Of a stretch of DNA of 29,291 bases, positions 21 to 29,291 are shown in pieces. This stretch comes from Candidatus Micrarchaeota archaeon (lineage in GTDB: Archaea; B1Sed10-29; WALL01; WAMD01): contig CAZZDL010000010.1 in the NCBI GenBank assembly GCA_964652335.1, forward strand, positions 1 to 29,291, written 5' to 3'. Positions within the stretch are counted from its first letter, which is position 1. Each line of letters opens with the position of its first letter. Both the position numbers and the translations under genes were made by a program. The notes beneath the pieces are model-generated. The model was not told the DNA's origin. It made no database searches and saw only the letters and a program-made list of their open reading frames with translations.

Positions 21-89
21 ACCGACGATACGTCGGCTCGCGAAGGCCTACCTTGCGTAGTCCGCGGCGTAAACCGACGCGACGGTTTA
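21..89 (-). other. GC-rich multi-hairpin trailer downstream of tRNA-Leu (possible structured RNA)
   Basis: Minus strand: TAAACCG-TCGCGT-CGGTTTA, then CTAC-GCAAG-GTAG flanked by CGCG...CGCG, then GCCGACG-TAT-CGTCGGT. Much more GC-rich than the flanking genes. Confidence 0.45.
26..42. repeat. 17-bp direct repeat CGATACGTCGGCTCGCG, copy 1 (copy 2 at 29275-29291)
   Basis: Exact match read at both ends of the window. This copy sits in the hairpin CCGACG-ATA-CGTCGG (22-36). Confidence 0.95.
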
Positions 90-90
90 G

Positions 91-175
91 TGCGGGGGAC
101 GGGATTTGAACCCGCGCAGGCCTAAGCCACTGGATCCTGAATCCAGCCCGTTTGACCAGGCTCCGGCACCCCCGC
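91..175 (-). tRNA. tRNA-Leu(CAG)
   Basis: Acceptor GCGGGGG/CCCCCGC+A, anticodon arm CTGGA-TTCAGGA-TCCAG, long variable arm, T loop TTCAAAT; CCA not encoded. Confidence 0.97.
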
Positions 176-194
176 GTTGAATAAGCGTTAGAAA

Positions 195-974
195 TTAGAC
201 TTTCTCAAATTCAATCCCTATTTCTTCCAACAATCCTTTTATCATTACTCTCTGTTTTCCTTTTAGCCCCTTTTCATCTATCATTGCTAGATCAACACCA
301 TCACTTGTTTTTTCAACCATCTGTCTAACCAATTCTAAATCAAGTTTGTCAGCGTTATATTTTGGACATATATGGCTGAATGCTATGTTTTCCTCCATGG
401 GTGTGAATTTGGGAGCGTAATGACCTCCGCCAAATCCAATAGCTACTTCAGCCTTCTTTTTTCTATTTACACCAGCTAATATGGATTCCACAAGTACAGT
501 CACTGCATTCAGATCGTTCCATTCATTTTCAGTGGATCCGACTTCTGCAAAAAACATAGGGGTTTTGAATTCTGTGGGACCATGGTGGGTAACCTCTAGG
601 GTTACTGTGTATTCACTTGGTTGTCTTGATAACATTTCTAGGAATACATTCCTCATTCCGTTTGCAAATGTCATTTGTAATTCTCTTTCTCTCCCCCCAT
701 ATCTTGCATCACCGAAATTTCCAGTGGGATGAACACTCAGTGTCTTTATCCCTCTCTCTGCCTTGTGTCTAGAGATGACTATAAAATAATCGATTGCCAT
801 CTCTTCTGCTATCTCGTCCAGACCAGATATGTATAGAACATCCTCATCCTTTTCTATCACAACCACATCATTTTTAATCAAAAACCTATCCTCTGGCTTA
901 AAACCTTTATCTAGCAGTATAGGAAGAGCATTCCTGCCAACAACATCTGCCTTTGAGACAATTATCCCTATCAT
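195..974 (-). CDS. dtdA: D-aminoacyl-tRNA deacylase, archaeal DTD2 type
   Basis: Motifs SRH, LSVHPTGN, LEVTHHGPT, FAEVGS, GFGGGHYAPKF. Confidence 0.92.
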   Translation of the reverse strand: MIGIIVSKADVVGRNALPILLDKGFKPEDRFLIKNDVVVIEKDEDVLYISGLDEIAEEMAIDYFIVISRHKAERGIKTLSVHPTGNFGDARYGGRERELQMTFANGMRNVFLEMLSRQPSEYTVTLEVTHHGPTEFKTPMFFAEVGSTENEWNDLNAVTVLVESILAGVNRKKKAEVAIGFGGGHYAPKFTPMEENIAFSHICPKYNADKLDLELVRQMVEKTSDGVDLAMIDEKGLKGKQRVMIKGLLEEIGIEFEKV

Positions 975-1114
975 TCTAACGCCTTTAACTCACCGTTCTC
1001 ATGTGAGAATATTGTCTGGCATTTAGGACATAAAAAATAACCTGCCTTCTCTTCTAGGGCAATACTTGCCCCTGTTTCTGAAAAGCATTTAGGACACACA
1101 AGTTTGTATTCCAT
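971..1114 (-). CDS. 47-aa Zn-ribbon microprotein (two CPKC motifs); absent from ORF track
   Basis: Hand translation MEYKLVCPKCFSETGASIALEEKAGYFLCPKCQTIFSHENGELKALE. SD AGGTGG upstream, TATA-like TTTTATAA at about 1145-1152, ATGA overlap with the dtdA start. Confidence 0.85.
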   Translation of the reverse strand: MEYKLVCPKCFSETGASIALEEKAGYFLCPKCQTIFSHENGELKALE

Positions 1115-1154
1115 TCTCCCACCTATTATTTTCATGGTGGGGAATTATAAAAAA

Positions 1155-3047
1155 CTACCTCAGTCTTACAGAGTCAAGGGTCCTTGGTGCATCTGCCTCA
1201 ACTCTCGCCTTTTCTATACTCCTTGTCAGTGCTAACGCCTTCTTCTCTTCACCGTGGACAACCAAAACCTTCTGTGGTCTTGGAGTCAATTTCTTGAAAA
1301 AGCTAAGCAATTGGTTCCTATCTGCGTGACCTGAGAAACCTTCAACAGTCTCAACCCTCATGTTTATCTTTAATGCCACAGTCTTCCCGTCTATGGTCAC
1401 TGGTATCTCTTTGCCCTTTGAGTTCATTCCTAGGCTCTGTACTCTCCTACCTAACGAACCCTCACTCTGGTAACCCACAAACACAATGGCATTCTTTTCA
1501 TTCTCAGCCATCTTTTTGAAATATTCAACACTTGGTCCTCCTGTAAGCATACCAGACGGTGCTAGTATCACAGAATAACCTTCCTCTGTTATTTGATCCC
1601 TCTTGTTCTTGTCCACTTCTATGAATATATCTGAATCAAACGGTGAGTCATCGTGCAGTATTCTTTTCTGAACAGACCTCTTCATATACTCTGGATAGGC
1701 TGTGTGTATAAGAGATGCCTCCTTTATCATCCCATCTATATACACTGGTATGTCCCAATCATTCTTTCTTGCATATTCCTCTAATACTAGCATTATCTCT
1801 TGGGCCCTACCAATTGAGAACACAGGAACAAGAACGCTCCCACCATTGCTTGTTGTCTCGAGTATAGTTGATATCAGGTTTCTCTCACTAGTATATCTAG
1901 GTGGCTGTATATCCTGAGGTCCTCCGTATGTAGACTCCATTATCAGCGTTTCTATCCTTGGGTACCTGGTGTCTATCATGTCAAATAATCTAGTGTACCC
2001 GAACTTGAAGTCCCCAGTATAGAGAAGGTTATGGAAACCTTGCCCGATATGCAAATGCACTGCAGCGGAACCAAGTATGTGCCCGGCGTTATGGAATGTT
2101 AATCTTATGTCAGGAGTAATATCAGTGACTTCTCCATACTCCTTTACTATACAATGCTTCACAAACTCCTTTATGTCATCCTTACCGTATGGTGGATCTC
2201 TTCCTTCCCTTGCTGTGACCTCAATATAATCCATCATCAACAAGACGCTTAGGTCTCTAGTTGGAGGTGTACAATAAGTTGGACCTTCAAATCCATATTT
2301 GTATAGATATGGAACAAAGCCAACGTGGTCAAGGTGAGCGTGGGATATCACCACCGCATCTAACTCATCAAGTGGGAAATTTATAGAATCTAGCATAGGA
2401 TATGCCCTTTCCCTACTAGCTACATTTACCCCACAGTCTAACAGGATCTTTGAATTATTTGTTTCAAGCAGGAATGCAGATCTTCCAACCTCTCTAGCTC
2501 CTCCGAGCGGGGTTATCCTCACCCATTGTAGTTCTCCAATGTCTGAGTATATCCTTTCCCCTGTTTTCTTTAGGAATTTTTCAATTTCCTTTGCATGCTT
2601 GACTATTGTGTGTCTTACTCCGGTTAAGGTTGGAGACGGGTTGTTTGGTGATCTCCACAATTCAGGAATCCAGCCGGTTTTTATAGCAATATCCTTTAGG
2701 TTTTGTCCATGTTTTCCTATTACTAACCCAAGCCTCTTAGCTTCTATGTAAACCTTTCCACTTTCTGGGACAAAGAACATATCCCCAATTTCCGCCTCTT
2801 TTGGAACTATATCAAGTATTATCTCCTTAGCCTTTTCAGGATCCTTCCTAATGGATGGGTCCCCTCTAACATGCACTCTCTTCTTTAATTCTGAAGCTAT
2901 ACTCCTGACTATGCTTTCATCCTCTATCAATTCCTCTAGGTTTTTTGTCAATATTATTATCTCGCTACCTTCTGGGAAGATCTTCGTTATTTCAGCACTA
3001 CTAGGCATTAACTCGTTTATCCTAGCCTCTAGGCTGGAAAAATCCAT
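1155..3047 (-). CDS. fttA: beta-CASP ribonuclease aCPSF1 / termination factor FttA (KH + MBL + beta-CASP)
   Basis: KH motif GLVIGKHG, GGAREVGRS, HAHLDH, NAGHILGS, MESTYGG, GFSGHADR; adjacent to psmB as usual. Confidence 0.95.
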   Translation of the reverse strand: MDFSSLEARINELMPSSAEITKIFPEGSEIIILTKNLEELIEDESIVRSIASELKKRVHVRGDPSIRKDPEKAKEIILDIVPKEAEIGDMFFVPESGKVYIEAKRLGLVIGKHGQNLKDIAIKTGWIPELWRSPNNPSPTLTGVRHTIVKHAKEIEKFLKKTGERIYSDIGELQWVRITPLGGAREVGRSAFLLETNNSKILLDCGVNVASRERAYPMLDSINFPLDELDAVVISHAHLDHVGFVPYLYKYGFEGPTYCTPPTRDLSVLLMMDYIEVTAREGRDPPYGKDDIKEFVKHCIVKEYGEVTDITPDIRLTFHNAGHILGSAAVHLHIGQGFHNLLYTGDFKFGYTRLFDMIDTRYPRIETLIMESTYGGPQDIQPPRYTSERNLISTILETTSNGGSVLVPVFSIGRAQEIMLVLEEYARKNDWDIPVYIDGMIKEASLIHTAYPEYMKRSVQKRILHDDSPFDSDIFIEVDKNKRDQITEEGYSVILAPSGMLTGGPSVEYFKKMAENEKNAIVFVGYQSEGSLGRRVQSLGMNSKGKEIPVTIDGKTVALKINMRVETVEGFSGHADRNQLLSFFKKLTPRPQKVLVVHGEEKKALALTRSIEKARVEADAPRTLDSVRLR

Positions 3048-3068
3048 GCTTCCACCTCAGAAATTTTT

Positions 3069-3680
3069 TCATATCTTTTCTAGATCCTTTCTAGTGTAAC
3101 TAAACTCCTGGAATCCGGACTTCTTTATCACTACAATGTCGGCCCCGTTTCCAGACATTACATCCCTTTCCATTGCAGCCTTCAAAGCTCTCAAGGCCAA
3201 TTTCATGTTTTCCTTTGTTGTGTTTGTCTCTTTGTAGCCCTCTTCTAGTACTCCATAAGCTATGGGTGAGCCTGATCCTGTTGCCACATACTTCTCAGGA
3301 AGTACAGAACCTAGAGCATCCAAGGAAAACAGCCTAGGCTCTGTGTCATATCCTCCCATCAGCAATTGGACGTAATATGGGAAAATTCTGTTCTCATTTA
3401 GAATATTACTAAGCAATGTTGCAGCTGCGAATACCTTCATTGGAACCTCTCTTTCTATCTGATACAAATTTGTTTGTACTTTCATTATCCTGACTAACTT
3501 TTGCGCGTCTGCAACGCTTCCAGCTGTTGTTATCCATATATGATCCTGTACCTTGAATATCTTCTTTGTTTCCTTATTTGCCACTAGGTAACCCATGGTG
3601 GCCCTTTTCTCTGATGCCAGAACCACACCATCTTTTGATACCAAACCTATAGTAGTAGTTCCTTTCCTGCTCTCTTCCAT
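3069..3680 (-). CDS. psmB: 20S proteasome beta subunit
   Basis: 7-aa propeptide then G^TTTIG, EKRAT, GSVADAQ, ATGSGS, ERDVMSGNG. Confidence 0.97.
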   Translation of the reverse strand: MEESRKGTTTIGLVSKDGVVLASEKRATMGYLVANKETKKIFKVQDHIWITTAGSVADAQKLVRIMKVQTNLYQIEREVPMKVFAAATLLSNILNENRIFPYYVQLLMGGYDTEPRLFSLDALGSVLPEKYVATGSGSPIAYGVLEEGYKETNTTKENMKLALRALKAAMERDVMSGNGADIVVIKKSGFQEFSYTRKDLEKI

Positions 3681-3722
3681 GTTAGCCCCCCTAGAATGAG
3701 CGTTATTATTCTTAGTTCCTTC

Positions 3723-3737
3723 ATTTAAAAACCTTTC
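3723..3737 (-). promoter_or_regulatory. BRE-TATA promoter for psmB-fttA
   Basis: Minus strand GAAAGG-TTTTTAAAT about 45 nt upstream of the psmB start. Confidence 0.65.
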
Positions 3738-4375
3738 TACTGGTATTTATATATCTCTATCCACTTAACAGGCTTTCCAAGGCTCATTAGCTCTTTAAGG
3801 CAAGAGGCCTTTCTCTCTAGATATCCTTTTCCCGCCGTGTTTGCATCTATCTCCACTGTTATCTCTTTGCCAACATTGGTTTTTGCGTTGTTAAAGTATT
3901 TCTCAGTTAGGGCCTTTACCTTCTCCTTTTCATCTTTTATTATATCTTTTATAGTTATATCAAAAACAAGGGTCTTACCTGCAAGTTCATGATTAAAGTC
4001 TACTTGCACCCTTCCTCCTGATACACTCAAAACCCTGGCAGGGTAACCATCCACATCAACAACCATTCCTGGTTTTGGGTCTATTCCTGCGTTTTTAAAT
4101 GCGGTTAATGGGACAACTCTGACCAATCCAAGATTTCTTTCCCCATAAGCCTTTTCAGGAGGTATTTCCACAGTTTTACTCTCTCCCTTTTCAGAACCAA
4201 TTATTGCCTCTTCTAATCCCTTTATCAAGTTTCCTTTGCCTACAACCACCACAAGTGGCCTTCCTTCTCTACCGAGCTTTTTAGCTATTTCCGGGTTACT
4301 TGAGTCTATTATGTCTCCTCCCTTTATCTTCCCTGTAAAGTCCACTATTACTACATCTCCTGCCTCAACTTTCAT
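3737..4375 (-). CDS. Long-type archaeal FKBP peptidyl-prolyl isomerase (SlyD-like)
   Basis: VDFTGK, LIKGLEEA, IPPEKAYGER, VDFNHELAGK, plus a C-terminal domain. Confidence 0.92.
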   Translation of the reverse strand: MKVEAGDVVIVDFTGKIKGGDIIDSSNPEIAKKLGREGRPLVVVVGKGNLIKGLEEAIIGSEKGESKTVEIPPEKAYGERNLGLVRVVPLTAFKNAGIDPKPGMVVDVDGYPARVLSVSGGRVQVDFNHELAGKTLVFDITIKDIIKDEKEKVKALTEKYFNNAKTNVGKEITVEIDANTAGKGYLERKASCLKELMSLGKPVKWIEIYKYQ

Positions 4376-4451
4376 ATATAACCCTCCGAGGTTATCTTTT
4401 TGAACCTGGGACTATTTAAATATAAGGGTTCAAAACAATGTAGGTGAGAGT

Positions 4452-5474
4452 ATGAACAAGAGAACAAAGTGGATACTATTTGTAGCAGTTATTGCGGCCC
4501 TTAGCGTATTATGGCCATTGAGTTATGTTCTCAGGCATTCCCCATCAAAGAACCCACAACTAGAGGAGGACAATAACACGGTGACCATAATAGAGGCTAT
4601 AGAGAGTTATAAGGCTTCAGTTACCGGGAATGTAACCAGCATATCACCAGAATTGCTTGTCGTTGCATACTCTGATTTTGGCTCCAGAGATGCAATAGCG
4701 AAACAAATAAGATCTCTTGGGGTTAGTGGAGTAAATGTCAGTAGAAGCGAGTCTGACAATGAGAATTTCATTTACCGTTTTGATATAATGGTAAACTTAA
4801 CAAATTCGTCAGATATTGGAAGAGTCTATTACCTTATAACTAGACTGTTGAACTTATCAATAGCATCAGCATTTGCCCCTGCCGATGTAACTCTTCCAGA
4901 TAATGCCACATTCTCAGGAGAATCTGGAGATGTAGTGCTGAACATTCCAAAAAACACACTAACATTTGTTTATCCTGGGACAAGGCTAGGTGAGAATCAA
5001 TTTACAGTCTATCTGGAAAAATCTGGACCTAGCATAAGGAGAGCCATTGCTATAGGAGGGACACCGTTTTTCATACCTGAAACAGAGACAGAGTACACAC
5101 CAGTTACAGGTAATGTTGTCTCTGAGGAGTTTGCAGTGGTTAAAGCCGATGTTTCAGGACTTGATCTAACAAAAATAAACGAAACAGAGCTTGGGGATAG
5201 ATGGAATGCAACTGTCAGTTTAGACAACACTTCAAATGCTAGCTATTTAATAGTTAAGGCAGAGCCGTCTAGACTGGACGAGTTGGAAAAAGCAGTATCA
5301 AGCGAATTTAATGTCATAGATTCATACTATCTTTCCAAAGTAAAGGTGGATATAGACAATTCTACGTATGTAGTGGATAATGTTATAACCCATGGCGAGA
5401 AGGAAGTGAGCTTCACGGCAAAGGTCACAAGAGCGTATGGATATATAGTAGATGTCAGCTACTTCAGCCCTTGA
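4452..5474 (+). CDS. Exported / membrane-anchored putative glycoprotein of unknown function
   Basis: Basic N-terminus followed by a hydrophobic helix; 12 N-x-S/T sequons counted; Val/Ser/Thr/Asn-rich; SD GGTGAG and TATA-like TTTAAATA upstream. Confidence 0.8.
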   Translation: MNKRTKWILFVAVIAALSVLWPLSYVLRHSPSKNPQLEEDNNTVTIIEAIESYKASVTGNVTSISPELLVVAYSDFGSRDAIAKQIRSLGVSGVNVSRSESDNENFIYRFDIMVNLTNSSDIGRVYYLITRLLNLSIASAFAPADVTLPDNATFSGESGDVVLNIPKNTLTFVYPGTRLGENQFTVYLEKSGPSIRRAIAIGGTPFFIPETETEYTPVTGNVVSEEFAVVKADVSGLDLTKINETELGDRWNATVSLDNTSNASYLIVKAEPSRLDELEKAVSSEFNVIDSYYLSKVKVDIDNSTYVVDNVITHGEKEVSFTAKVTRAYGYIVDVSYFSP

Positions 5475-5781
5475 GACGTAATATCGCCTCTGCTACATCA
5501 CCTGTCTCTTCCAGCGCCTTCTTGGCTTCTTCCTCACTTACTCCTGTTTGCTCTATAACAAATTTTACATCTTCTTCTGTTATCGTCTTTACGCCAATCT
5601 CTCCAGTTATCTGAAATGTCTTTATCCCTTTCATATCTATTTCTGTAACCTTTGGATTTTTTACTATTATATCTCCATCATCTGTTTTTATTATTACTTC
5701 CTTTGCAGCTATGTCCTTCGTTTTTATTCCTAGCTGTCTGAACATGGCTTGCATCTGTCTTGGATTCATTCCAGGCATCAT
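5464..5781 (-). CDS. nac: Nascent polypeptide-associated complex protein
   Basis: MNPRQMQAMFRQLGI, NPKV, TFQITG, and a C-terminal UBA-like segment EEDVKFVIEQTGVSEEEA...GDVAEAI. Confidence 0.95.
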   Translation of the reverse strand: MMPGMNPRQMQAMFRQLGIKTKDIAAKEVIIKTDDGDIIVKNPKVTEIDMKGIKTFQITGEIGVKTITEEDVKFVIEQTGVSEEEAKKALEETGDVAEAILRLKG

Positions 5782-5841
5782 CTAAAATCACCTAGTTTTT
5801 CTAGACAATAGTTAAAAATAATACTTTCGTTAGTTTGTAGG

Positions 5842-6483
5842 ATGAGATTAATAACGAACAAGTCTGATCTGGAAAAATATTTACCAGCCTCATGGGCAGA
5901 GGGATTTATGCAGAGGAAGAAGGCAGTAGAAACATATCTAGAGACAGGAGGGATAATAAAGATAGGAGAGCACAAGGGAAACTGGCCAAGGCTTATTTAT
6001 CCAACTAAGGAAAAGCTTAGACAGGAGCTTGATGAAGTAGAAAAGGAGCTAGCCAAACTAGACAAGCAATTGGCTGAGGCAAAGCGTAGGAGAAACAGAC
6101 TTCAGACTACGCCAGGCAAGATGGTTAAGGTAGCCATGGACCCACTATACTGGGAGCATAGAATGAAGTTGTTGAAGGACAGAGAGTATAGAGAGGTGTA
6201 TGAGTTAGTAAGACCACCATTTCATCTAATGCATATGCCAGAATGGAGAAAAAGATTAGAGGTTTTTGTTAAAAGTGCAGAATACAGAGCAAGGCTAAAG
6301 GAAGCGAGGCTTAGCAAGATAGGTAAGAGAAGAGAACTGCTTGATAAGGAAGTAGAAAGGAGAATGGACTTTAGCAGATCTGTTGTTGATGGTTTAATTG
6401 AAAAGCTTGAAGCAAAGAGAGATAAGCTGGTCAAGCGCGCAGATGCGTTGAGGACATTAATGGGATGGGCGGAAGCTAGCTAA
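5842..6483 (+). CDS. Hypothetical charged coiled-coil protein
   Basis: 213-aa ORF with host-like codon use (AGA/AGG, GAA/GAG); heptad-like segments at about aa 55-88 and 165-205; no family recognised. Confidence 0.8.
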   Translation: MRLITNKSDLEKYLPASWAEGFMQRKKAVETYLETGGIIKIGEHKGNWPRLIYPTKEKLRQELDEVEKELAKLDKQLAEAKRRRNRLQTTPGKMVKVAMDPLYWEHRMKLLKDREYREVYELVRPPFHLMHMPEWRKRLEVFVKSAEYRARLKEARLSKIGKRRELLDKEVERRMDFSRSVVDGLIEKLEAKRDKLVKRADALRTLMGWAEAS

Positions 6484-6676
6484 AGATCAGCCATAGAAAT
6501 GGCTTCCCGTACAAGCTTAAACTAATTATTTCTAGTACAGTTGGTATTATGAATGCCAAGAACACTGTTAAGTTTGGATGCTCGTCTAGCCTATATCCTC
6601 TTTTTGCGTCAGCACTTGCTATGACAACAGATATGAATATGAAGTTTATGAGCCAGCTTATTATTGTTTCAATCAT
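6476..6676 (-). CDS. Small two-TM membrane protein, unknown function
   Basis: Two hydrophobic stretches with a polar loop; overlaps the hel308 stop; SD-like GGAG upstream. Confidence 0.65.
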   Translation of the reverse strand: MIETIISWLINFIFISVVIASADAKRGYRLDEHPNLTVFLAFIIPTVLEIISLSLYGKPFLWLIFS

Positions 6677-8726
6677 TTAGCATCTCCCTTGTTAATTTCT
6701 TTCCAATAATCTTTTCCAATTTATCCTTTTTAATCTTTCTAATATCAGCCACCTTTTTTACGCCTAGATTGTACAATCTTCTAGCTCTTATTCTCCCAAT
6801 ACCTCTCACAGCAATCAACGGCAATAATTCTTCCTTTACTCCATATCTTATTCTTGTCATCAGTTTTTTGAACTCCTTTTCCTTTTCACTACCTACGAGT
6901 CTAGCTAGTTCAGAGGCAGAATACGCCATCCACTCGGCATTGGATATATACGCCCTCAATATCCCTGGTGCAACATTGTATTTTTCTAGTATCTCCTCTT
7001 CTGTCTTTTCATTTATCCAGTCCTTTATCATTAGCGCAGTTTTTATCTTGTCTAACAGCAGATAGTCTTCAAACCCAAGGGACGTTACCTCAAACCCAAG
7101 TTCGTTTTCATTTAGTAGGGCTAGCTCCCACATGTCCTCCTCTTCTTTTTTCTTTACAGATAGGTATGGACTCATTTCAATTGTATCAACTACAGCATAA
7201 ATGAAACCAAGTTCTCCCATATCTCTACTGAAGGAATTAATCAATTTCCTAGCAGAGTATGGATCTATGTATAATTCACTCACTCTGGCCCCAAGCCTAG
7301 TTGGAGTTATCTTTTCTCCAATATTAACGAATCCCCATCTTGCTAGCTCTTCCACAACACTCCTTATTTTATTCATGAGATAGTCTGGATCTCCGTATTG
7401 ATGGGCAAAGAAGGAGTTCATAAACAAGGCATTTAATCGTTGATAATCATGAGCTATGTGCATCGCCACAGCGGACAAAACATGGCTTCTCAAAACAGGT
7501 TCCTTGCTAAACTGAGAGTAGACCGTTTCTGGTTCTCCGTTTATGTATTCTTCCCATAGTATCTCCTTTTCATTTTCTGATCTTGCTATTAGTATTGCCA
7601 GACCCTTTTCTGAGTAACCTGGTCTTCCAGCTCGTCCACCACACTGAAAGAATTCTCTTTTTGGTAATCTGATTAATCCCCTTGGTGTATATCTAACTAG
7701 AGACTTCATTATCACTACGTCGGCTGGCAGATTCACACCCATTGCAAGGGTTGGAGTGGCACATATTAGTCTGATCTTTCCATCTCTAAACGCATCTTCC
7801 ACAATCTCCCTTTGCTCTGCTACCAGTCCAGCGTGGTGAAAGGCAGTTCCCATTGACAGACATTTTGACAATCTCATGCATTGTTTTGTTGGAGGGTTCA
7901 CTGCAGTCAAAACCTTTTTAGCTAAAGATTCTTCAAAATCGTAATTTTTTGCTATTTTACCTAACCTCTCCGCTGTTGCCTCTGCACCTTTCCTTGTTTG
8001 TGTAAATATCAGCATGTTTTTTCCTTCATTTAGGAAATGCTTAACTATTGCGTTCAAAGGGTCCTTGCTAGGTTCTATTTCAATTGTTCCATCTGTTGTT
8101 TCCAGTATCCCGTCTAGATATACTCCCTTTACTAATTTGACTGGTCTCCAATTACTTTTTACCATTTGTGCATTAAGCCAATCAGCAATTTCCTCTGCGT
8201 TTGGTATTGTTGCTGAGAGCGCTATGATCTGTGTTTTTGGGAACATATACTTGAACTTCATTATTATTGATTCTATTGTTGGACCTCTGTCAGAATCTAT
8301 TAGGTGTATTTCATCTACGATGAGAAGGTCAACATCTTTTATCCATTGCGCTCTGTGTCTCATTAATGAATCTAGCTTCTCATTAGTTGTTACAATGACA
8401 TCGTATTTTCCTAACCATGGATCACTTGAATCCAGATCGCCTATACTTATTGCAATCCTTTTTCCCATCCTTTCCATGGATTGAAATTCTTTGTATTTCT
8501 CTGTTGCTATTGCCTTTAGTGGGCAAGTATATACAGCTTTCCTACTATCCAGGATTGCCATTTCAGCAATGAACGTTTTCCCAGATCCTGTTGGGCTGGC
8601 TACGACTAGGTTTGATCTATTTTCTAGAAACCCAGTCTCAATAGCTCTTTCCTGAACAGGGTTAAGTTTTTCTATCCCATTTTTTTCCATCAGGTCTCTT
8701 ATGCTCTTTTTTATCTCAACTCCCAT
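6669..8726 (-). CDS. hel308: Ski2-like DNA helicase Hel308/Hjm
   Basis: SPTGSGKT, DEIH, LSATIPN, FHHAGL, TPTLAMGVNLP, QCGGRAGRP, C-terminal HhH GIGRIRARRLY. Confidence 0.95.
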   Translation of the reverse strand: MGVEIKKSIRDLMEKNGIEKLNPVQERAIETGFLENRSNLVVASPTGSGKTFIAEMAILDSRKAVYTCPLKAIATEKYKEFQSMERMGKRIAISIGDLDSSDPWLGKYDVIVTTNEKLDSLMRHRAQWIKDVDLLIVDEIHLIDSDRGPTIESIIMKFKYMFPKTQIIALSATIPNAEEIADWLNAQMVKSNWRPVKLVKGVYLDGILETTDGTIEIEPSKDPLNAIVKHFLNEGKNMLIFTQTRKGAEATAERLGKIAKNYDFEESLAKKVLTAVNPPTKQCMRLSKCLSMGTAFHHAGLVAEQREIVEDAFRDGKIRLICATPTLAMGVNLPADVVIMKSLVRYTPRGLIRLPKREFFQCGGRAGRPGYSEKGLAILIARSENEKEILWEEYINGEPETVYSQFSKEPVLRSHVLSAVAMHIAHDYQRLNALFMNSFFAHQYGDPDYLMNKIRSVVEELARWGFVNIGEKITPTRLGARVSELYIDPYSARKLINSFSRDMGELGFIYAVVDTIEMSPYLSVKKKEEEDMWELALLNENELGFEVTSLGFEDYLLLDKIKTALMIKDWINEKTEEEILEKYNVAPGILRAYISNAEWMAYSASELARLVGSEKEKEFKKLMTRIRYGVKEELLPLIAVRGIGRIRARRLYNLGVKKVADIRKIKKDKLEKIIGKKLTREMLND

Positions 8727-8760
8727 CCTTATTTAAATGGGATTTGAACAATAAAATAAC

Positions 8761-10398: not shown

Positions 10399-10420
10399 GA
10401 TATGAAATTACAAATCAGGT

Positions 10421-10435: not shown

Positions 10436-10460
10436 TAGTTCTCGTTTTATACTCTTTTAA

Positions 10461-19045: not shown

Positions 19046-19046
19046 T

Positions 19047-20844: not shown

Positions 20845-20846
20845 AT

Positions 20847-21227
20847 TTACCACCCTATGAATCCATCAACATCTAATTTCTTTTTTGATCTGATATACAC
20901 AACAGGTATCCCATATTTCCTCAGTCTCTCTCTAAGTTTGAGGTCCACTGTAGCTGCTATACATTTTTTGTTTATAGCTATCTCTAACACAGCGTCATCT
21001 GCGTTTTTATTAGATGGGATCACCTCATATTCAAACGCATTTAACAGTTTCAATCCAACACCTCTTTTCTTCAACTTTAGTTCCCTAAACACAGACTCGG
21101 GAACTATCAACTTAAATTTCCTTCCAATGATTCTTTCTAGTTCTGATTTGATATCAATGTTCATCTCTATGGCAGCCAGTAGTATGCTAGTGTCTACTAC
21201 CACCTCATACGATCTTTCCATAGCCAA
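20847..21227 (-). CDS. PIN-domain protein (Fcf1/Utp24-like)
   Basis: [23 protein letters not shown]; conserved position between aIF2gamma and rpoE'. Confidence 0.9.
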
Positions 21228-22404: not shown

Positions 22405-22408
22405 TCAC

Positions 22409-22798
22409 TCACTCCTTTTTTTCTTCCTTCTTCTCAAACAGCTTATCTAATTTTTCTGCACCAGCCTTTATTACCTTGGTGTTCACTTGAACTATGTCCT
22501 CTGCAATGGTGTTGCCTCTCACTGTTTTCCTTTTTCTTTCACCTTTTCTCTTTGGGTGGAAACCTGTCCCACCTGAGAGAAGAACTCTTTTCCTAGATGT
22601 CCCATGTAGATCTGACCTCATTGGAAAACCATCTTTGTCTGATCCTCCTGTTATCACTAGTTCGTACCCTGCTAGACCTAGCTGATCTCCCTTTATCTTA
22701 TCTCCTATCTTCATACCATACAATACCTTGGCCTGGTTCTTGTCCAGTTCCTTTTGGTAGCTTTTCCCAGTTTCTGGATCTGAAACAACCAATTTCAT
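22409..22798 (-). CDS. rps6e: 30S ribosomal protein S6e
   Basis: ITGGSDKDGFPMR, GERKRKTVRGN. Confidence 0.98.
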   Translation of the reverse strand: MKLVVSDPETGKSYQKELDKNQAKVLYGMKIGDKIKGDQLGLAGYELVITGGSDKDGFPMRSDLHGTSRKRVLLSGGTGFHPKRKGERKRKTVRGNTIAEDIVQVNTKVIKAGAEKLDKLFEKKEEKKE

Positions 22799-22804
22799 TT
22801 TCTA

Positions 22805-24565
22805 TCACTCCTTAATTCTTTTTTCAATCTGTTTTATTTCTTTTAGTAGTTCCTCTTCTTCGGTCATATTTTCTCTTTGGAAAAGGGTTAGTAGGTCATT
22901 TATCTTATCTAGTGGAATAAAGTTGTACAATACATCTCCTTCATTAATGTTTCTACCTATCACCCCACCATCTATACTAACAGCTACTTGCATTCCAGCC
23001 TTTGCTTCTTGAACGTTTTCTCCCTTGTCCTGGATCTCCTTTATCTTACCAACGATTTCTCCGGATCCATTTATGAGCCTTGCCCCAGGTCTTAGTATTC
23101 CGGAGATAATCTCAACACCACATATGGCTGGCTTAGATTTTCTGAATACATAACCTGGTAGAATCTTTACCTTAACAGGATACATGTTTGAGGAGAGCAA
23201 CCCTTGTTTCTCTTTTTCTCTTTCAGCCTCTTTCCAGCCCTTATATGTTTCGAGCAGCGTATAAATAACGTTACTCTCAAAGATCGGGACGTCCAGTCTC
23301 TCTGCCTCCTCTAAGGCATCCTCGGTCACGCCCGTATTGAATGCAAAGATTACCCCTAGATAATTATCTTTTTGCTTCACTGAATACGCTTTCATTACAT
23401 CCTTTTTGTTTACCTTTCCTATACTACCAGATTTAACAGGAATTTCTTCTGTCTCCAGTAATTTCACCATAGCTTCTAAACTTCCTAATGTATCTGCTTT
23501 AACTATTACTCCATTTATCTCCTTTTCAAATTCTATCTCTTCGATCTCTCCCTTTATCTCCTCTATAGCCTCCTTTGGGTCTCCCCAGACACAGATTACA
23601 CTACCCCCTGGTAACGCATTGTCCAGGTTAGGAGCCGCGATTTTAATACCACATGCGGCGTGAACTTCTTTTACAGAATTAAATCTCTGTTTTGGGTCTC
23701 TTATTTCTTGTAACGGTTTTGGCCTAAGTAATGCCCGAACCTTAGTTTGTATCGGACCCTGCATTCCAGCCAAAACAATTGTATCGCCAGTTCTTATTTT
23801 TCCTTCATAGAGTATTATGTCTATGGTTGTTCCTAAGCCCTGCACTTCCTTTACTTCTAGTATTGAGCCCCTTCCGGGCTTTTCAATATCTATGTCCAGC
23901 TTTTTCTCCATGAACTTTTGAGACAACCCAGATGCATACAGCAGGAGATCAGGTATTCCCTCACCTGTCTTGGCGGATGTTGGGATTATCAATATTTGCT
24001 TAGTAAAGTCTGAAACTCTGTCAAATCTTTCTGAATTAAACCCAAGTTCGTACAGCTTTCCTACTAGCTCATATATCTTGTTCTCTAACTCAAGTTTTAC
24101 TTTTTCTTCCTGCTTGTTAAAGCTCTCTAAGAAGAAAGCCCCATTGTGAGAAACCCAACCGTTTAGCATATCTATCTTATTCGCTGCCACGATGAATGGA
24201 ACCTTATACGTTTTTAGAATGTCTATCGCTTCTAGGGTTTGAGGTTGGAGACCTTGATTTATGTCTATAACGAGGATTGCAAGATCTGCTATGCTTCCAC
24301 CACGTTTCCTTAGATTTGTAAACGCCTCGTGTCCAGGGGTGTCTATAAACAGCAGGCCAGGAATAGTTAACTCTATTCCAAGCTTTTTTAATTTATCTCC
24401 ACATATCTCCTCAATATTCTTCTTTGGTATCTCTGTTGCACCAATGTGCTGTGTTATCTTTCCAGCCTCTCTTTCAGCGACAGTTGTTCCTCTGATGTAA
24501 TCTAGTAAAGTCGTCTTCCCATGGTCCACGTGACCAAGGACTGTGATTATTGGTTGTCTTATCAT
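22805..24565 (-). CDS. infB: Translation initiation factor aIF5B (IF-2)
   Basis: [55 protein letters not shown]. Confidence 0.98.
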   Translation of the reverse strand: MIRQPIITVLGHVDHGKTTLLDYIRGTTVAEREAGKITQHIGATEIPKKNIEEICGDKLKKLGIELTIPGLLFIDTPGHEAFTNLRKRGGSIADLAILVIDINQGLQPQTLEAIDILKTYKVPFIVAANKIDMLNGWVSHNGAFFLESFNKQEEKVKLELENKIYELVGKLYELGFNSERFDRVSDFTKQILIIPTSAKTGEGIPDLLLYASGLSQKFMEKKLDIDIEKPGRGSILEVKEVQGLGTTIDIILYEGKIRTGDTIVLAGMQGPIQTKVRALLRPKPLQEIRDPKQRFNSVKEVHAACGIKIAAPNLDNALPGGSVICVWGDPKEAIEEIKGEIEEIEFEKEINGVIVKADTLGSLEAMVKLLETEEIPVKSGSIGKVNKKDVMKAYSVKQKDNYLGVIFAFNTGVTEDALEEAERLDVPIFESNVIYTLLETYKGWKEAEREKEKQGLLSSNMYPVKVKILPGYVFRKSKPAICGVEIISGILRPGARLINGSGEIVGKIKEIQDKGENVQEAKAGMQVAVSIDGGVIGRNINEGDVLYNFIPLDKINDLLTLFQRENMTEEEELLKEIKQIEKRIKE

Positions 24566-24566
24566 C

Positions 24567-24597
24567 TAATCCCCTCAGTTGCCCGAGGTTCACTCCA
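24567..24597 (-). promoter_or_regulatory. Kink-turn candidate with GNRA-capped hairpin covering the aIF5B SD
   Basis: UGG-AGU-GA-A-CCUCGG-GCAA-CUGAGG-G-GA-UUA, ending 1 nt before the AUG. Confidence 0.6.
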
Positions 24598-24600
24598 CAG

Positions 24601-25062
24601 CTAGAGTTCGTCTTCACTGTAGACGAACTTGTCCATTATTCTTTCCCATTCTATTAGTTCATTGTCATTGAAAAACCGCTTTATTTCAATTTCTGCCGTT
24701 TCTACGCTATCCGATGCGTGTATTATGTTTTTTGACACACTCATTGAATAGTCTCCTCTTATGCTTCCTGGTTCTGCCTCTCTGCCATTTGTTTTACCAA
24801 CTACTTTCCTTACCACGGTTACAGCATCCTTTCCTTCCCAGACAGTTGCTATAACTGGACCAGACTTCATAAAGTTAAGGAGATTTGGGAAAAATGGTTT
24901 GTCTAAGTGATGCTTGTAATGTTCCTTTAGTATATCATCGTTTAGCTTTATCATTTTCATTGCAATTAGCTTCAGTCCTTTCTTCTCTAGTCTGGATATT
25001 ACTTCTCCCACTATTCCTCTCTGGAGTGTATCAGGCTTTAGCATCACGAACGTTCTCTCCAT
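24601..25062 (-). CDS. ndk: Nucleoside diphosphate kinase
   Basis: ERTFVMLKPD, SGPV, PGSIRGDY, NIIHASDS; ATG 25062 follows SD AGGTGG. Confidence 0.98.
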   Translation of the reverse strand: MERTFVMLKPDTLQRGIVGEVISRLEKKGLKLIAMKMIKLNDDILKEHYKHHLDKPFFPNLLNFMKSGPVIATVWEGKDAVTVVRKVVGKTNGREAEPGSIRGDYSMSVSKNIIHASDSVETAEIEIKRFFNDNELIEWERIMDKFVYSEDEL

Positions 25063-25384
25063 TTTTCCCACCTTTCTTTTTTGCTTTCTTTTCCAGCTTC
25101 TTTTTCTTCCTCAGCTCTCTCCTCTCTTTCTTGCTGAGCTTCTTCTTTTTCTTTTTCTCCACCTTTTCCTCAGCTCTCTCCTTTTTCCTCTCCTTTCCAT
25201 AGAGTCTTATCTTTTTCTCTAGGTGATAGCTTTCTGTCCATTTAACCTTCTGTGGACTCCTCTTTAGGACAAGCATGTTTCTTTCACATTTTGAGGAGCA
25301 AAATGTTAGAAAGCTTCCATCTTCTCTGACCACTATCTTTGCTCTTCCAGGAGCTATATCAGCTCCACAGAAACTACACTTCAT
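25031..25384 (-). CDS. rpl24e: 50S ribosomal protein L24e with long Lys/Arg-rich tail
   Basis: CSFCG, FCSSKCERN, PQKVKWT. Confidence 0.96.
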   Translation of the reverse strand: MKCSFCGADIAPGRAKIVVREDGSFLTFCSSKCERNMLVLKRSPQKVKWTESYHLEKKIRLYGKERKKERAEEKVEKKKKKKLSKKERRELRKKKKLEKKAKKKGGKNGENVRDAKA

Positions 25385-25388
25385 AGTA

Positions 25389-25601
25389 TCACCTTGCCCT
25401 TATTGGTTTTGCCTCTGTCTTTGTGTCAAGCAATATTATTATATCACCTACTTTTACGGGCCCTTTAACGTTCCTTCTGAGTATTCTCCCTTTATCTGGC
25501 CCATCTAGTATTTTGCACATTACTTGGTGAATCTCCCCATATACTCCAGTCCTACCAAGTATCTCCATTATCTCGGCAGGAACGCCTTCACTCAATACCA
25601 T
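25389..25601 (-). CDS. rps28e: 30S ribosomal protein S28e
   Basis: [24 protein letters not shown]. Confidence 0.97.
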
Positions 25602-25611
25602 ATTTTACACC

Positions 25612-25959
25612 TCATTTCTTAAGCTCATTGACTTTTGATATTATACTCGCTACTATGTCCTTTGCATCTCCTTCCTCAAGTATTGCTATTGAAGAGGTAG
25701 GAACCTTTATCCCAGATGCCTTCCCTAGTTCTTCTTTAGATGGCACATTTACGTATATTATTCCCTTTTCATCACACAAGACTGGAAGGTGCATTACGAT
25801 CTCCTTCGGAGAAACGTCTGATGCAATTATGACAAGCTTTGCTTTTTCCCTTTCCACTGCCTTTGTTGTTTCATTTACACCCCTTTTAACCTTTCCAGTC
25901 TTTGAAGCTACCTCCACAGCTTTGTATACATCCTTTACCAGTTCTTCTGGTATTTCCAT
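25612..25959 (-). CDS. rpl7ae: 50S ribosomal protein L7Ae (kink-turn-binding protein)
   Basis: KRGVNETTKAVER, IASDVSPKEIVMHLP, SKEELGKASGI. True start is ATG 25959 after SD GGAGGTGA. Confidence 0.97.
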   Translation of the reverse strand: MEIPEELVKDVYKAVEVASKTGKVKRGVNETTKAVEREKAKLVIIASDVSPKEIVMHLPVLCDEKGIIYVNVPSKEELGKASGIKVPTSSIAILEEGDAKDIVASIISKVNELKK

Positions 25960-25961
25960 TT

Positions 25962-25988
25962 TCTCACCTCCTATCATCGGATCATTGA
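25962..25988 (-). promoter_or_regulatory. Box C/D-like kink-turn candidate in the rpl7ae leader, using the SD as its second strand
   Basis: UC-AAU-GA-U-CC ... GG-U-GA-GA: tandem sheared G.A pairs, a U.U pair and two C-G pairs; only a 2-bp canonical stem. Confidence 0.55.
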
Positions 25989-25992
25989 TTTG

Positions 25993-26076
25993 ATAGCCCC
26001 GGGCAGATCCGAAGGGCCTTTTAGAAAAGCCCCGGGAAAACTGGAACCTGCCCGGAATAGGGGACACAAGGTCCCC
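25993..26076 (-). repeat. Two degenerate copies of the tRNA-Gln 3' end plus hairpins
   Basis: 25993-26018 matches 26079-26104 at 22/26 positions; 26028-26048 keeps GGTTC-N7-CCCGGGGCT; hairpin GGGGAC-CTTGT-GTCCCC at 26060-26076. Confidence 0.8.
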
Positions 26077-26079
26077 AAA

Positions 26080-26152
26080 TAGCCCCGGGCGGATTCGAAC
26101 CGCCGTCGCGAGGTCCAGAGCCTCGCATGCTTGGCCGCTACACCACGGGGCT
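26080..26152 (-). tRNA. tRNA-Gln(CTG)
   Basis: AGCCCCG/CGGGGCT+A (A1-U72, typical of archaeal Gln), anticodon arm CGAGG-CTCTGGA-CCTCG, T arm GGCGG-TTCGAAT-CCGCC. Confidence 0.97.
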
Positions 26153-26959
26153 TCACGTGAATATTATTGATGCGTATCCTACGCATGTGGGTTCCCCAGT
26201 TACATCGCTTGACGTTGAGTAGTCTACTAGTATACCTCTTGTTGCTCCTCTCTCACTTGCGAATACAGCAGCAGTTGCTATTGCGCCATATCCACATGCA
26301 CTAACATTCTTTTCTGATATCCTCTTGTAAAACTCTCTGACGTCTAAATTGGTTATCGCCTCTATTGCATACTTGTCATTTTTCTCAGCTTCCTCTACAG
26401 GTACATAATGGCTGAAATCACTTGAAGCTAAGACAAATGTATTCTCTGGAAGTATATCTGCTAAGGCTTTACCCAATTCTGCAGCAGTGCTCATACTTTG
26501 GTCACCAAGCATTATTGGAACAATGTCAAAATCTTTTAGGAAGTATTGCGCCAATGGCAATTGTACTTCTATAGAATGTTCCATTGCATGGGCTTCAGGG
26601 TCTGTTACAGCAGAGGTTACAGACTCACTGATCTTGTTCGCTATTTCTTTGTTGATCTTTACTTCCCCAATTGGTGTTATCCAATTTCCATTGTTATATA
26701 CTGCGATTTCGTTCTTATAGGAAGCAACACCCACATGGTCCGGACCTATTATCACAAGTGTTTTTGGATTGGTGTTTCTTATAACCTTAAATGTTTTTGC
26801 AGCTGTTCTCCCAGAATATATGTAACCTGCATGTGGGCTTACTCCGGCAATGGCTGTTAGGCTAGTCTCTCCACTGGACGAATCTAGCTCTGACAACAGA
26901 GCCATTAGCTCATCCTTTCTGTCAGGATAGAACTGCCCAGCCACTGCAGGCTCTCTCAT
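26153..26959 (-). CDS. MEMO1-family protein (AmmeMemoRadiSam B)
   Basis: REPAVAGQFYP, PHAGYIYSG, EHSIEVQLP, ASSDFSHY, SACGYG, VGYAS. Confidence 0.95.
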   Translation of the reverse strand: MREPAVAGQFYPDRKDELMALLSELDSSSGETSLTAIAGVSPHAGYIYSGRTAAKTFKVIRNTNPKTLVIIGPDHVGVASYKNEIAVYNNGNWITPIGEVKINKEIANKISESVTSAVTDPEAHAMEHSIEVQLPLAQYFLKDFDIVPIMLGDQSMSTAAELGKALADILPENTFVLASSDFSHYVPVEEAEKNDKYAIEAITNLDVREFYKRISEKNVSACGYGAIATAAVFASERGATRGILVDYSTSSDVTGEPTCVGYASIIFT

Positions 26960-27663
26960 TTTTGGCTCACCATCTCAAATTCCTCTAATGGGACCTTGAA
27001 ATCTGATTTTTTCTTTATCACACCTCTTCTTAGTAGGATTTCTCTTGCTAGTATCCAGTAAAGCAATGCCAAGCTTTTTTTACCTTTGTTGTTTGCTGGT
27101 ATTATCAAATCAACGTCCTTTAGATTGTTGTTCGTATCACATATTGCTACCACAGGTATCATTACTTTTCTAGCCTCTACTAGTGCTTGCTTGTCTATTG
27201 CTGGATCTCCGACAAATACAACGTCAACCTCAACGAAGTTTGGATTGTTTGGGTTTGTAAGTGTTCCAGGTATGAACCTTTTTACAACAGCTTTTGCTCC
27301 AATTAATTCTGCGAATTTCTTTGCAGGTTTTCTAGCATAAACCCTTGACGCCACAACTAGTATCTTGTCCGGATCGTATTTTGACAGGAAGTCAGCAACT
27401 ATTTTTATTCTTTCATCTATAGTTTTCACATCAAGTATGTGCAAACCATCTTGTCTTGTTTTGTATATATATGGTTTCATGTGTCCGCTCTTGAACTGGG
27501 ATCCTATGTGTATTCCTGCTTTTAGATAGTCCTCAAGCGGGACTAATAGATTGTCAGTTTGCTTATCAGTAACTTTTTCATCCTTGATCTTCTTTACACG
27601 ACTTGTTCTAGGTTTTGTCTTTCTTGGTTTTCTCCTTTGTGTTCTCCTTCTTTTTTCCACCAT
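26956..27663 (-). CDS. rps2: 30S ribosomal protein S2 with basic N-terminal extension
   Basis: YLKAGIHIG, RFIPGTLTNP, ICDTNN, IPANNKGKKSL. Start ATG 27663 after SD GGGGTGG; the longer track ORF overlaps the tRNA. Confidence 0.97.
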   Translation of the reverse strand: MVEKRRRTQRRKPRKTKPRTSRVKKIKDEKVTDKQTDNLLVPLEDYLKAGIHIGSQFKSGHMKPYIYKTRQDGLHILDVKTIDERIKIVADFLSKYDPDKILVVASRVYARKPAKKFAELIGAKAVVKRFIPGTLTNPNNPNFVEVDVVFVGDPAIDKQALVEARKVMIPVVAICDTNNNLKDVDLIIPANNKGKKSLALLYWILAREILLRRGVIKKKSDFKVPLEEFEMVSQK

Positions 27664-27683
27664 CTTACCACCCCATAAAAGAG

Positions 27684-27781
27684 TGGGGCCGCCGAGAAAT
27701 TCGGGCATTCATCGAATGCCCTTCGAACTCGGGTCACCGGCACCCCAAGCCGGGAGGATGGCCTGGCTACCCTACGGCCCC
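27684..27781 (-). tRNA. tRNA-Pro(GGG) with a 24-nt intron in the T-loop (position 59/60)
   Basis: GGGGCCG/CGGCCCC+A, anticodon arm CCGGC-TTGGGGT-GCCGG; T arm CCGAG-TTCGAA[intron]T-CTCGG. Confidence 0.95.
27698..27721 (-). other. Non-canonical BHB tRNA intron
   Basis: CCGAG-TTCG-AA^G-GGCATTC-GAT-GAATGCC-CGAA-TT^T-CTCGG forms a strict helix-bulge-helix-bulge-helix. Confidence 0.92.
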
Positions 27782-27782
27782 A

Positions 27783-27980
27783 CTAAACTCTCTTGTACTT
27801 TGCAACAGTTGGCATTAGTTCAACATGGCTTAGGAACATCCTCCTGCAACAGTATCGTGTGTATCCAAGTTGATCCAGGACCTTCTCTGGCTTTTCCCCC
27901 TTTTCTACTTTGTCAAGGAATTTATCCCAATCCTTGCCTATTACAGCCCCACACGTAAAACATCTTATCGGAAATTTCAT
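27783..27980 (-). CDS. rpoN: RNA polymerase subunit N (Rpo10)
   Basis: [22 protein letters not shown]. Confidence 0.98.
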
Positions 27981-27989
27981 TTTCTCACC

Positions 27990-28466
27990 TCATCTAAAGC
28001 TCTTCTGGAATCTTGCTCTTGCACCCTTTCTCATGTATTTCTTTGGTTCTTTCCTTCTTATGTCATCTACGAGTATTGACCTATCGTAATTTAAGTATGC
28101 ATTTTTCAGATCTTCACTCTCTGTGATTTTTACTATACCCTTAGCAACAGCAACCTTTACTGCTTCAGCCTGCCCCATGAATCCTCCGCCTTGAACATTG
28201 ACGTCTATGTCAAGGTTGTTTATGACCTTTTCTCCAAGAACGTCAGATGCTATCCATACAGGTAGGAGCATTTCCTTTCTTGCGATTTCAGGTTCTATCA
28301 AATCAACCTTCTTTTTATTTACTCTGTATTCTCCATTTCCCTTTACTATCTTTATCCTTGCTCTGGCTACAGCTGATTTCTTTTTACCTTTTGTTAGCAC
28401 AATTTTTTCCTTCTTTTTTGTTTTTGTTGATTTAGTCCCAGTTTTCTTAGTTGTTTTTCTCACCAT
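27990..28466 (-). CDS. rps9: 30S ribosomal protein S9 with Lys/Thr-rich N-terminal extension
   Basis: GKKKSAVARA, VQGGGFMGQAEA, YDRSILVDD, GARARFQKSFR. Confidence 0.97.
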   Translation of the reverse strand: MVRKTTKKTGTKSTKTKKKEKIVLTKGKKKSAVARARIKIVKGNGEYRVNKKKVDLIEPEIARKEMLLPVWIASDVLGEKVINNLDIDVNVQGGGFMGQAEAVKVAVAKGIVKITESEDLKNAYLNYDRSILVDDIRRKEPKKYMRKGARARFQKSFR

Positions 28467-28471
28467 TTAGA

Positions 28472-28888
28472 TCACCCTTTCCAACCAAGCATTTTTGCTA
28501 GCTCTTCAACAGTGATATAATCCCCTTTATACAGGTTTGTCTTAATCTTGGTTACATCTTTGTAGTCCTCAGGAGACCCAATAAATACTCTAAGGTTTCT
28601 GAGAAGGTTTCTTCCTCTGTTTGTTTTTGGGAGCATTCCCCTTATTGTTCTTCTCACGAGGAGATCAGGTCTTCTTGGGAATTTTGGCCCCTTTCTTGGA
28701 TTTGCAATGTCTGCTCTGTCTACCCTTTGCTTGTATTTTTTGAATATGTAGTCCTTGTTCCCTGATATAATTGCCTTTTCAGCGTTTATTACTACCACCT
28801 TTTCACCCTTCACTAACTCTTTTGCTGCCCTTGTAGCTAGCCTTCCGAGAATAGTATTTGTTGCATCAATGACTATCATCCTCATCAC
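28472..28888 (-). CDS. rpl13: 50S ribosomal protein L13
   Basis: IDATNTILGRLA, INAEKAIISG, RRTIRGMLP; the start may be 28885 or 28879. Confidence 0.97.
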   Translation of the reverse strand: MMRMIVIDATNTILGRLATRAAKELVKGEKVVVINAEKAIISGNKDYIFKKYKQRVDRADIANPRKGPKFPRRPDLLVRRTIRGMLPKTNRGRNLLRNLRVFIGSPEDYKDVTKIKTNLYKGDYITVEELAKMLGWKG

Positions 28889-29235
28889 CCTATAATTTTC
28901 ACCTTCTTACCTTCTGGATTCTTTTCAGCTATCTCTTCAAGGGATAAACATTTTCCACCAGCCTTTTCAATTTTTTCTTTGGCTGTATTTGAGAACCATA
29001 CAGCACCAACTGTCACTGGATGATCTATATCTCCGTTTCCCAGCACTTTTCCTGGAACTACAATTGTGTCGCCCTTTTCTGTCATGGCATTTATCTTCCC
29101 AATATTTACCTCAGCTAACCTTTGCCTAGGTCTGGTTATTCTCCATGCTATGTCTTTCCAGACCTTCCCTGGCTTCTTCCCAATTTTTCTTGATATATAC
29201 TCTCTCATTTTTGGTTTTTTCTTATGTAATACCAT
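28885..29235 (-). CDS. rpl18e: 50S ribosomal protein L18e
   Basis: VWKDIA, EVNIGKIN, VVPGKVLGNG, FSNTAKEKIEKAGG, NPEG. Confidence 0.97.
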   Translation of the reverse strand: MVLHKKKPKMREYISRKIGKKPGKVWKDIAWRITRPRQRLAEVNIGKINAMTEKGDTIVVPGKVLGNGDIDHPVTVGAVWFSNTAKEKIEKAGGKCLSLEEIAEKNPEGKKVKIIG

Positions 29236-29274
29236 TTTAACTCCTCCTTACGCTCTTCACTCGGAGAGGAGAGC

Positions 29275-29291
29275 CGATACGTCGGCTCGCG
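29275..29291. repeat. 17-bp direct repeat, copy 2, inside the perfect hairpin GAGCCGA-TACG-TCGGCTC (29271-29288)
   Basis: Identical to 26-42; runs to the last base of the window. Confidence 0.95.

Follow-up and report, generated by a model that had tools for sequence, protein, structure and literature searches.

Here, we analysed a stretch of DNA of 29,291 nucleotides (nt), hereafter the window, from a Candidatus Micrarchaeota archaeon. The window is the entire contig C10 of the genome bin G000, which comprises 821,209 bases in 51 contigs and is rated 96.8% complete, and the same 17-nt hairpin sequence lies near both of its ends. The left end carries a tRNA-Leu(CAG) gene (90-175, minus strand, as called by ARAGORN; 91-175 in Rfam) and dtdA, encoding a D-aminoacyl-tRNA deacylase (195-974, minus strand, by Pfam), and the right end carries rpl18e (28885-29235, minus strand, by Pfam), which opens a run of rpl18e, rpl13, rps9, rpoN, tRNA-Pro and rps2. 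Pfam families were found for 32 of the 37 window proteins scanned, mostly products of core genes (ATP synthase, IF2, ribosomal proteins), while the other five include one ATP synthase F (NCBIfam, below the cut-off) and four unnamed proteins. A sequence-only reading of the window, which had named the tRNA-Leu and rpl18e correctly, took the shared 17-mer as a hint of a circular or excisable segment of core genes. To find the genes for ATP synthase and ribosomal proteins on a circle would have been a great surprise. Our results instead make it highly probable that the window is a contig of a linear chromosome and that both of its ends lie in one hairpin repeat of tRNA trailers, where the assembler likely broke; the matching ends would then stem from a break of the assembly in a repeat present twice. 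One gap of the bin is closed by the join of the window to contig C3 on the right and, likely, to contig C1 on the left. The interest of the locus is carried by the kit of trailer hairpins to which the repeat belongs, and not by the circle.

Exact copies of the 17-mer stand at 26-42 and at 29275-29291, both on one strand, as had been reported, and two matches to it, with up to two mismatches allowed, arose in 0 of 100 dinucleotide shuffles, so the pair is not due to chance. Each copy does fold into a hairpin as claimed, but the short pieces are unremarkable on their own (z-scores of -1.6 to -2.3, with 7-14 of 200 shuffles equalling them). The CCGA/CGA offset beside the two copies is present in the sequence, and the arithmetic of a join at the 17-mer, a circle of 29,249 bp with the tRNA-Leu about 104 nt from rpl18e, is correct. 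A search of the bin for further copies, as the sequence-only reading had suggested, gave five exact 17-mers on four contigs, namely two in the window, one in the first bases of C1, one in the tRNA-Leu(TAG) trailer on C23 and one in the tRNA-Leu(TAA) trailer on C28. A dispersed repeat family, offered at the time as a simpler alternative, is thus borne out. The right-hand copy is part of a 22-mer (29270-29291, plus strand) that is common to C1 1-22, C23 8764-8785 and C28 3308-3329, and it shares only 17 nt with the left-hand copy. The 17-mer was not found in 30 relatives at up to one mismatch, is absent from the 20 largest families of a repeat search, and Rfam at the gathering score returned only two tRNAs and no family for the repeat.

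The ends of the window were compared with Joint Genome Institute (JGI) metagenome contigs (L-numbered), genomes of relatives (G-numbered) and the Logan contigs of four sequencing runs, including X1 and X2. The JGI contig L046 agrees with window 26270-29291 at 3020 of 3022 bases, continues for 109 nt and is then identical to the C3 end over all 2950 bases. C3 terminates exactly at the 3' end of a tRNA-Leu(GAG) gene, which stands behind rpoD (by Pfam) and three genes that we take from their translations to be rps13, rps4 and rps11, in the order rps13-rps4-rps11-rpoD. In L046 this tRNA-Leu(GAG) lies 165 nt upstream of the rpl18e start. The order of tRNA-Leu and L18e cited in the sequence-only reading was correct, but the upstream partner of rpl18e is tRNA-Leu(GAG) with rpoD and not the tRNA-Leu of the window, and tRNA-Leu(GAG) is the second tRNA-Leu with a paralogous trailer that had been suspected just outside the window. 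A contig of 3220 nt from X1 covers L046 2880-3030 with 0 differences and reaches 8 nt past the window end.

The same arrangement is found in relatives, where 25 of the 27 loci have rpoD directly upstream of rpl18e and the remaining two are interrupted by contig ends, one of them retaining tRNA-Leu(GAG) and the tail of rpoD. This count leaves out L001, which is the window itself, and also L029 and L030, weak rpl18e matches with neither rpl13 nor rpoD that likely represent the uL15 paralog. Upstream of rpl18e, ARAGORN called a tRNA-Leu at 12 loci (11 GAG and one TAG), and a motif search found the tRNA-Leu start motif in 23 of the 27. Thus, rpoD, tRNA-Leu(GAG) and rpl18e stand in their usual archaeal order, and the window continues on its right into C3. 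A continuation of the rpl18e side into a trailer of the C23 or C28 type was considered and is ruled out for L046 by its sequence. The JGI metagenomes were scanned with a 22-letter pattern, which matched five stretches; one of these, L045, was treated as a chance match, being GC-rich, with no tRNA and no alignment of at least 60 nt to the bin.

The bridge in L046 also accounts for the matching ends. It contains a second 17-mer, 59 nt after the first, and window bases 1-55 (plus strand) are identical to L046 3040-3094 within the tRNA-Leu(GAG) trailer, with a mismatch at base 56 and identity again at 57-65. Because bases 1-55 lie within the bridge and the right-end 22 nt lead into it, both window ends reach into one repeat, here called R. 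R would be composed of the last 22 nt of the window, 17 nt missing from the bin and the first 55 nt of the window, with a likely length of about 94 nt given a complete left copy. The left-hand 17-mer (26-42, plus strand) matches the second of the two 17-mers within R. Bases 1-25 (plus strand) comprise a short spacer and one half of a stem-loop module whose loop is 5 nt long and of the ACAAG type and which is completed in L046; the AGGTGG once read there as Shine-Dalgarno-like is one arm of this stem-loop, and the stretch is not a ribosome-binding site. A near copy of the module occurs at C19 13483, and many tRNA genes have one immediately behind them. Two further modules occupy 43-89 (plus strand) in the tRNA-Leu(CAG) trailer and were recognised by sequence shared between trailers, the one at 43-65 being common to trailers on C1, C4, C5, C7, C9, C23 and C26 and the one at 63-92 to trailers on C1, C3, C4 and C28.

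Contig ends in this bin overlap exactly by 55 nt at 23 of 102 ends. Since an overlap of this length is usual in the assembly, the 55-nt shared start of the window is probably what an assembly fork leaves, and an effect of k-mer length on contig-end repeats is noted in the available text of PMC8116208. In X2 a 61-nt variant contig has G>A at the base right after 29291 and the run's own contig stops at 29291, and the variant at this next base may be the reason why contigs stop there. Depth in X2 over the middle of R is 155.7 against 69.9-85.1 in the unique flanks, a weak measure that fits about two copies. Where a repeat has two ways in and two ways out, a path through it can close into a loop, and this loop is the circle of the sequence-only reading.

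A real circular or excisable element of 29.3 kilobases, recombining at the repeat, would have more to recombine at than was first noticed, given a flanking direct repeat of 55 nt, or up to about 94 nt as inferred above, near-identical tRNA-Leu 3' ends on both sides and a RadA family in the bin, so that a rare crossover is possible in principle. Against this, L046 runs colinearly through the right-hand end, and no end-joining contig was found among the matches to L046 2880-3300 listed in any of the four runs, which are assembled contigs that rare forms could escape. The depths on either side of the right junction in X1 are alike (33.3 and 33.0, per contig) and the gene order across it is conserved in relatives. 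In line with the earlier observation that the window has no recombinase or replication gene, which the Pfam and NCBIfam scans of its proteins confirm, none of the 32 Pfam-matched proteins is an integrase or initiator, and a circle of these genes would carry off essential genes without a known initiator. Across the bin no match was found to PF00589, PF00239, PF01797, PF00078 or PF01541, each of which was matched in control genomes. Further, the end-to-end junction that had been proposed for mapping reads is not diagnostic, because the loss of 59 nt between the tandem 17-mers of the tRNA-Leu(GAG) trailer would produce an identical sequence as far as window base 55. For a crossover with the two copies of R in register, the predicted circle has 29,308 bp rather than 29,249 bp. 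An excisable segment is thus extremely unlikely, and a circular form that is real but rare has an equally slender chance.

On the left, C1 opens with the 22-mer of the right-hand copy, which directly follows the stop codon of a RecJ-like gene (DHH/DHHA1, by Pfam), and an X1 contig carrying the end of this gene, with the same letters as C1, enters R at its first base as a loose end. In G002 and G003 one contig carries the RecJ-like gene and dtdA in convergent orientation, separated by a tRNA-Leu. C1 is therefore the likely left neighbour of the window, as inferred from these shared ends and gene orders. A direct join of C1 to the window through the palindrome was considered and rejected. With both joins in place the chromosome would read C3 (rps13-rps4-rps11-rpoD-tRNA-Leu(GAG)), R, the window from its right end (rpl18e to dtdA and tRNA-Leu(CAG)), R and likely C1 with its convergent RecJ-like gene, so that R, built from GC-rich stem-loop modules, would follow both tRNA-Leu(GAG) and tRNA-Leu(CAG).

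Several points weigh against this arrangement. No single contig bridging C1 and window base 1 was found, and in G001 the RecJ-like gene and dtdA are on separate contigs, with other genes behind the RecJ-like gene. With k=55, the assembly should have extended 55 nt into the repeat on the right, where 22 were observed, a shortfall for which the variant at the following base may account. In X1 no record among the matches listed bridges L046 3081-3082, and at this position a contig in X1 and in X2 leaves R into a C23-type trailer, an exit which shows that trailer forms differ between strains. The evidence consists of assembled contigs, without raw or long reads, and contigs lose rare variants; L046 or one of the runs may also come from the same source material as the window. 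The missing bridge and the other exit from R, together with a shared stretch of exactly 55 nt, would also fit a misjoin, in which bases 1-55 belong to the tRNA-Leu(GAG) trailer only and became attached to that of tRNA-Leu(CAG) by way of a module common to both, so that the bracketing of the window would be nothing but an assembly error. However, the 22-mer also terminates C1, which leads into R in X1, the depth of R in X2 is about twice that of the flanks, and G001 and G003 have the same module family behind tRNA-Leu(CAG), all of which makes a misjoin very unlikely. We thus retain the reading of a linear chromosome with R at both ends of the window.

Gene conversion is the likely reason why the two Leu trailers have remained so similar; the tRNA-Leu genes, nearly identical at their 3' ends, would prime it, and RadA would be its likely agent. 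The tRNA-Leu loci of the family were compared through L094, L096, L097, L098, L099 and L100 against C10, C3 and C23 of G000. Beside dtdA the anticodon is CAG in G000, G001 and G003 and TAA in G002; before rpl18e it is GAG in G000 and G002 and TAG in G003; and in a Glu-Leu-Val cluster it is TAG in G000, CAG in G002 and GAG in G003. In G003, the genes for tRNA-Leu(GAG) and tRNA-Leu(CAG) are identical over 125 nt, a stretch that runs from the variable arm of the gene into its trailer. This permutation of Leu anticodons among fixed loci represents either real exchange or misassembly. It would also be expected if the repeat were the scar of a past rearrangement between tRNA-Leu loci, yet the flanking protein genes are unshuffled, with rpoD-rpl18e and RecJ-dtdA holding in G002 and G003, and the permutation touches the middles of the tRNAs only, could be an assembly error and fits conversion better than a scar at the 17-mer. 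We therefore give a scar almost no credence at all.

The repeat is one instance of a wider pattern, as most tRNA genes of G000 are followed by GC-rich stem-loop modules from a shared kit. The counts refer to the 25 tRNAs, of 35 called by ARAGORN, that have a trailer of at least 100 nt within the contig; a relaxed ARAGORN search with long introns gave 141 calls, mostly false, and was not used. At least 20 nt are shared with another trailer in 18 of the 25, compared with 2 of 24 upstream flanks, and the tRNA's own 3' end is repeated over at least 11 nt in 14 of the 25 trailers (at least 18 nt in four) compared with one upstream flank. A tRNA or trailer from a different contig is matched by 19 of 102 contig ends, against 18 of 2000 random 60-mers. 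The wider module of the 17-mer has 10 copies in G000, all at tRNA genes or at contig ends leading to them. A looser pattern of this module was found in 6 of 60 relatives, all of the same class, and of the 14 matches in them, 12 follow a tRNA gene, one falls within a T-loop insertion of a tRNA-Leu(GAG) and one is elsewhere; two of these placements, missed by ARAGORN, were read by eye. The modules would be transcribed as part of the pre-tRNA trailer and then cut off. Searches of the bin for the five families named above gave no candidate mobilising enzyme, and a literature search covering few subscription journals and no supplements gave no description of a tRNA-linked hairpin kit in DPANN or other small archaea.

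Other trailers show the same construction. That of tRNA-Gln(CTG) in the window (about 25990-26079, minus strand) holds two hairpins of the kit and repeats the tRNA 3' end in a slightly altered form, is nearly equal to the tRNA-Val(TAC) trailer on C28 and sits in the rpl7ae leader. Additionally, L048 2861-3203 links the left end of C15 to the right end of C23 by way of tRNA-Ala(GGC), and the 22-mer recurs just upstream of this tRNA.

Modules of the kit also appear inside tRNA genes. In relatives, tRNA-Leu(GAG) genes with insertions in the T-loop, and some in the D-loop, were seen at L010, L012, L014, L015, L017-L020, L022, L023 and L025, and several of these insertions are built of modules that are trailers in G000. 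In G016, the 17-mer module lies inside a T-loop insertion of the 58/59 type in tRNA-Leu(GAG). The window has its own case in tRNA-Pro(GGG) (27684-27781, minus strand), which lies between rpoN and rps2, was missed by both ARAGORN and Rfam and has a 24-nt T-loop insertion (58/59) at 27698-27721. This insertion forms a full bulge-helix-bulge, with a central helix paired at 4 of 4 positions, two 3-nt bulges and an 8-bp inner helix, and is likely a non-canonical intron. Since the listed start of the rps2 open reading frame (ORF), 27708, falls inside the insertion, this start is likely too early. Among 11 tRNA-Leu loci of relatives, chosen for their oversize genes, eight have a central helix of 4 of 4 pairs between 3-nt bulges, and the other three comprise one paired at 1 of 4, one trailer duplicate and one without a match.

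These observations allow a tentative and still rather doubtful reading in which the kit would be a gene-less mobile family of small archaea that targets the T-loop of tRNA genes. Modules would stay as a spliceable intron at 58/59 where the junction forms a bulge-helix-bulge and would otherwise end up as trailers, and the shared trailers would serve as recombination handles for the swapping of anticodon arms among tRNA-Leu loci while the order of protein genes remains intact. A mobile kit would bear on how archaeal tRNA genes gain introns by tying this gain to a repeat family, and would show isoacceptor genes trading places.

Two other features of the window lie outside the repeat. Next to R, the leader of rpl18e carries a conserved motif with the ribosome-binding site (29239-29267, minus strand), recognised by comparison of leaders and consisting of CGAGT, a variable stem-loop, GCGNAAG and the ribosome-binding site. 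It was present at 9 of the 28 loci, none of them outside the family or order (the window, L002, L003, L007, L009, L011, L012, L013 and L016), has no Rfam match and is a candidate ribosomal-protein leader RNA as judged by its sequence. Further, the ORFs at 4452-5474 (plus strand, 340 amino acids) and 5842-6483 (plus strand, 213 amino acids) match no Pfam or NCBIfam family.

Among known systems, the window can be compared with circular contigs, whose direct terminal repeats are described in the available text on CheckV (PMC8116208), as the same sequence stands near both contig ends. Here, in contrast, the repeat is 17 nt long, starts 25 nt inside the contig, with its first copy from base 26, and occurs elsewhere, with five exact copies on four contigs, and therefore does not behave as the usual terminal repeat; nor was a replication initiator found by Pfam among the 37 ORFs of the window. 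The segment is also comparable to the attL/attR-bounded islands and proviruses that integrate at tRNA genes, as described in the available text of PMC9897764, since it lies between direct repeats that include tRNA sequence. Unlike such islands, it is core chromosome, and both tRNA-Leu genes are complete and differ in their anticodons. The relatives show no empty site, as rpoD and rpl18e adjoin in 25 of 27 relatives and RecJ and dtdA are linked in G002 and G003, and the bin has no match to a tyrosine or serine recombinase (PF00589, PF00239). As a side observation, the lack of a PF00589 match means that no XerA-like gene was found in this 96.8% complete bin.

The trailer kit itself has closer counterparts. 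The tRNA-linked repeats (TLRs) of Escherichia coli are non-coding sequences in tRNA operons, and the available text of PMC8144298 gives no known function for those linked to tRNAs and describes them as ending in an 18-19 nt copy of the 3' end of the upstream tRNA. Many trailers of G000 similarly end in a copy of their own tRNA 3' end, as counted above, but the likeness is one of description, the kit being archaeal and made of several interchangeable palindromic modules, and the tRNA-Leu(CAG) trailer of the window has no such copy in the 89 nt present in the contig (5 nt match). The repetitive extragenic palindromes (REPs) tagged with CGTC are, in the available text of PMC3733652, clustered palindromes of 20-40 nt downstream of genes, with no dedicated transposase known. 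The copies on C23, on C28 and on the rpl18e side likewise have CGTC next to the stem on one strand, whereas the left-hand copy in the window lacks this tag. Further, REPs are of high copy number and mostly at ORF ends, whereas the module has about 10 copies in the G000 genome and is tied to tRNA genes, and, unlike in GTAG-family REPs, no REP-associated tyrosine transposase (RAYT/Y1, PF01797) was matched in the bin. The kit thus resembles both the TLRs and the CGTC-tagged REPs and corresponds fully to the definition of neither.

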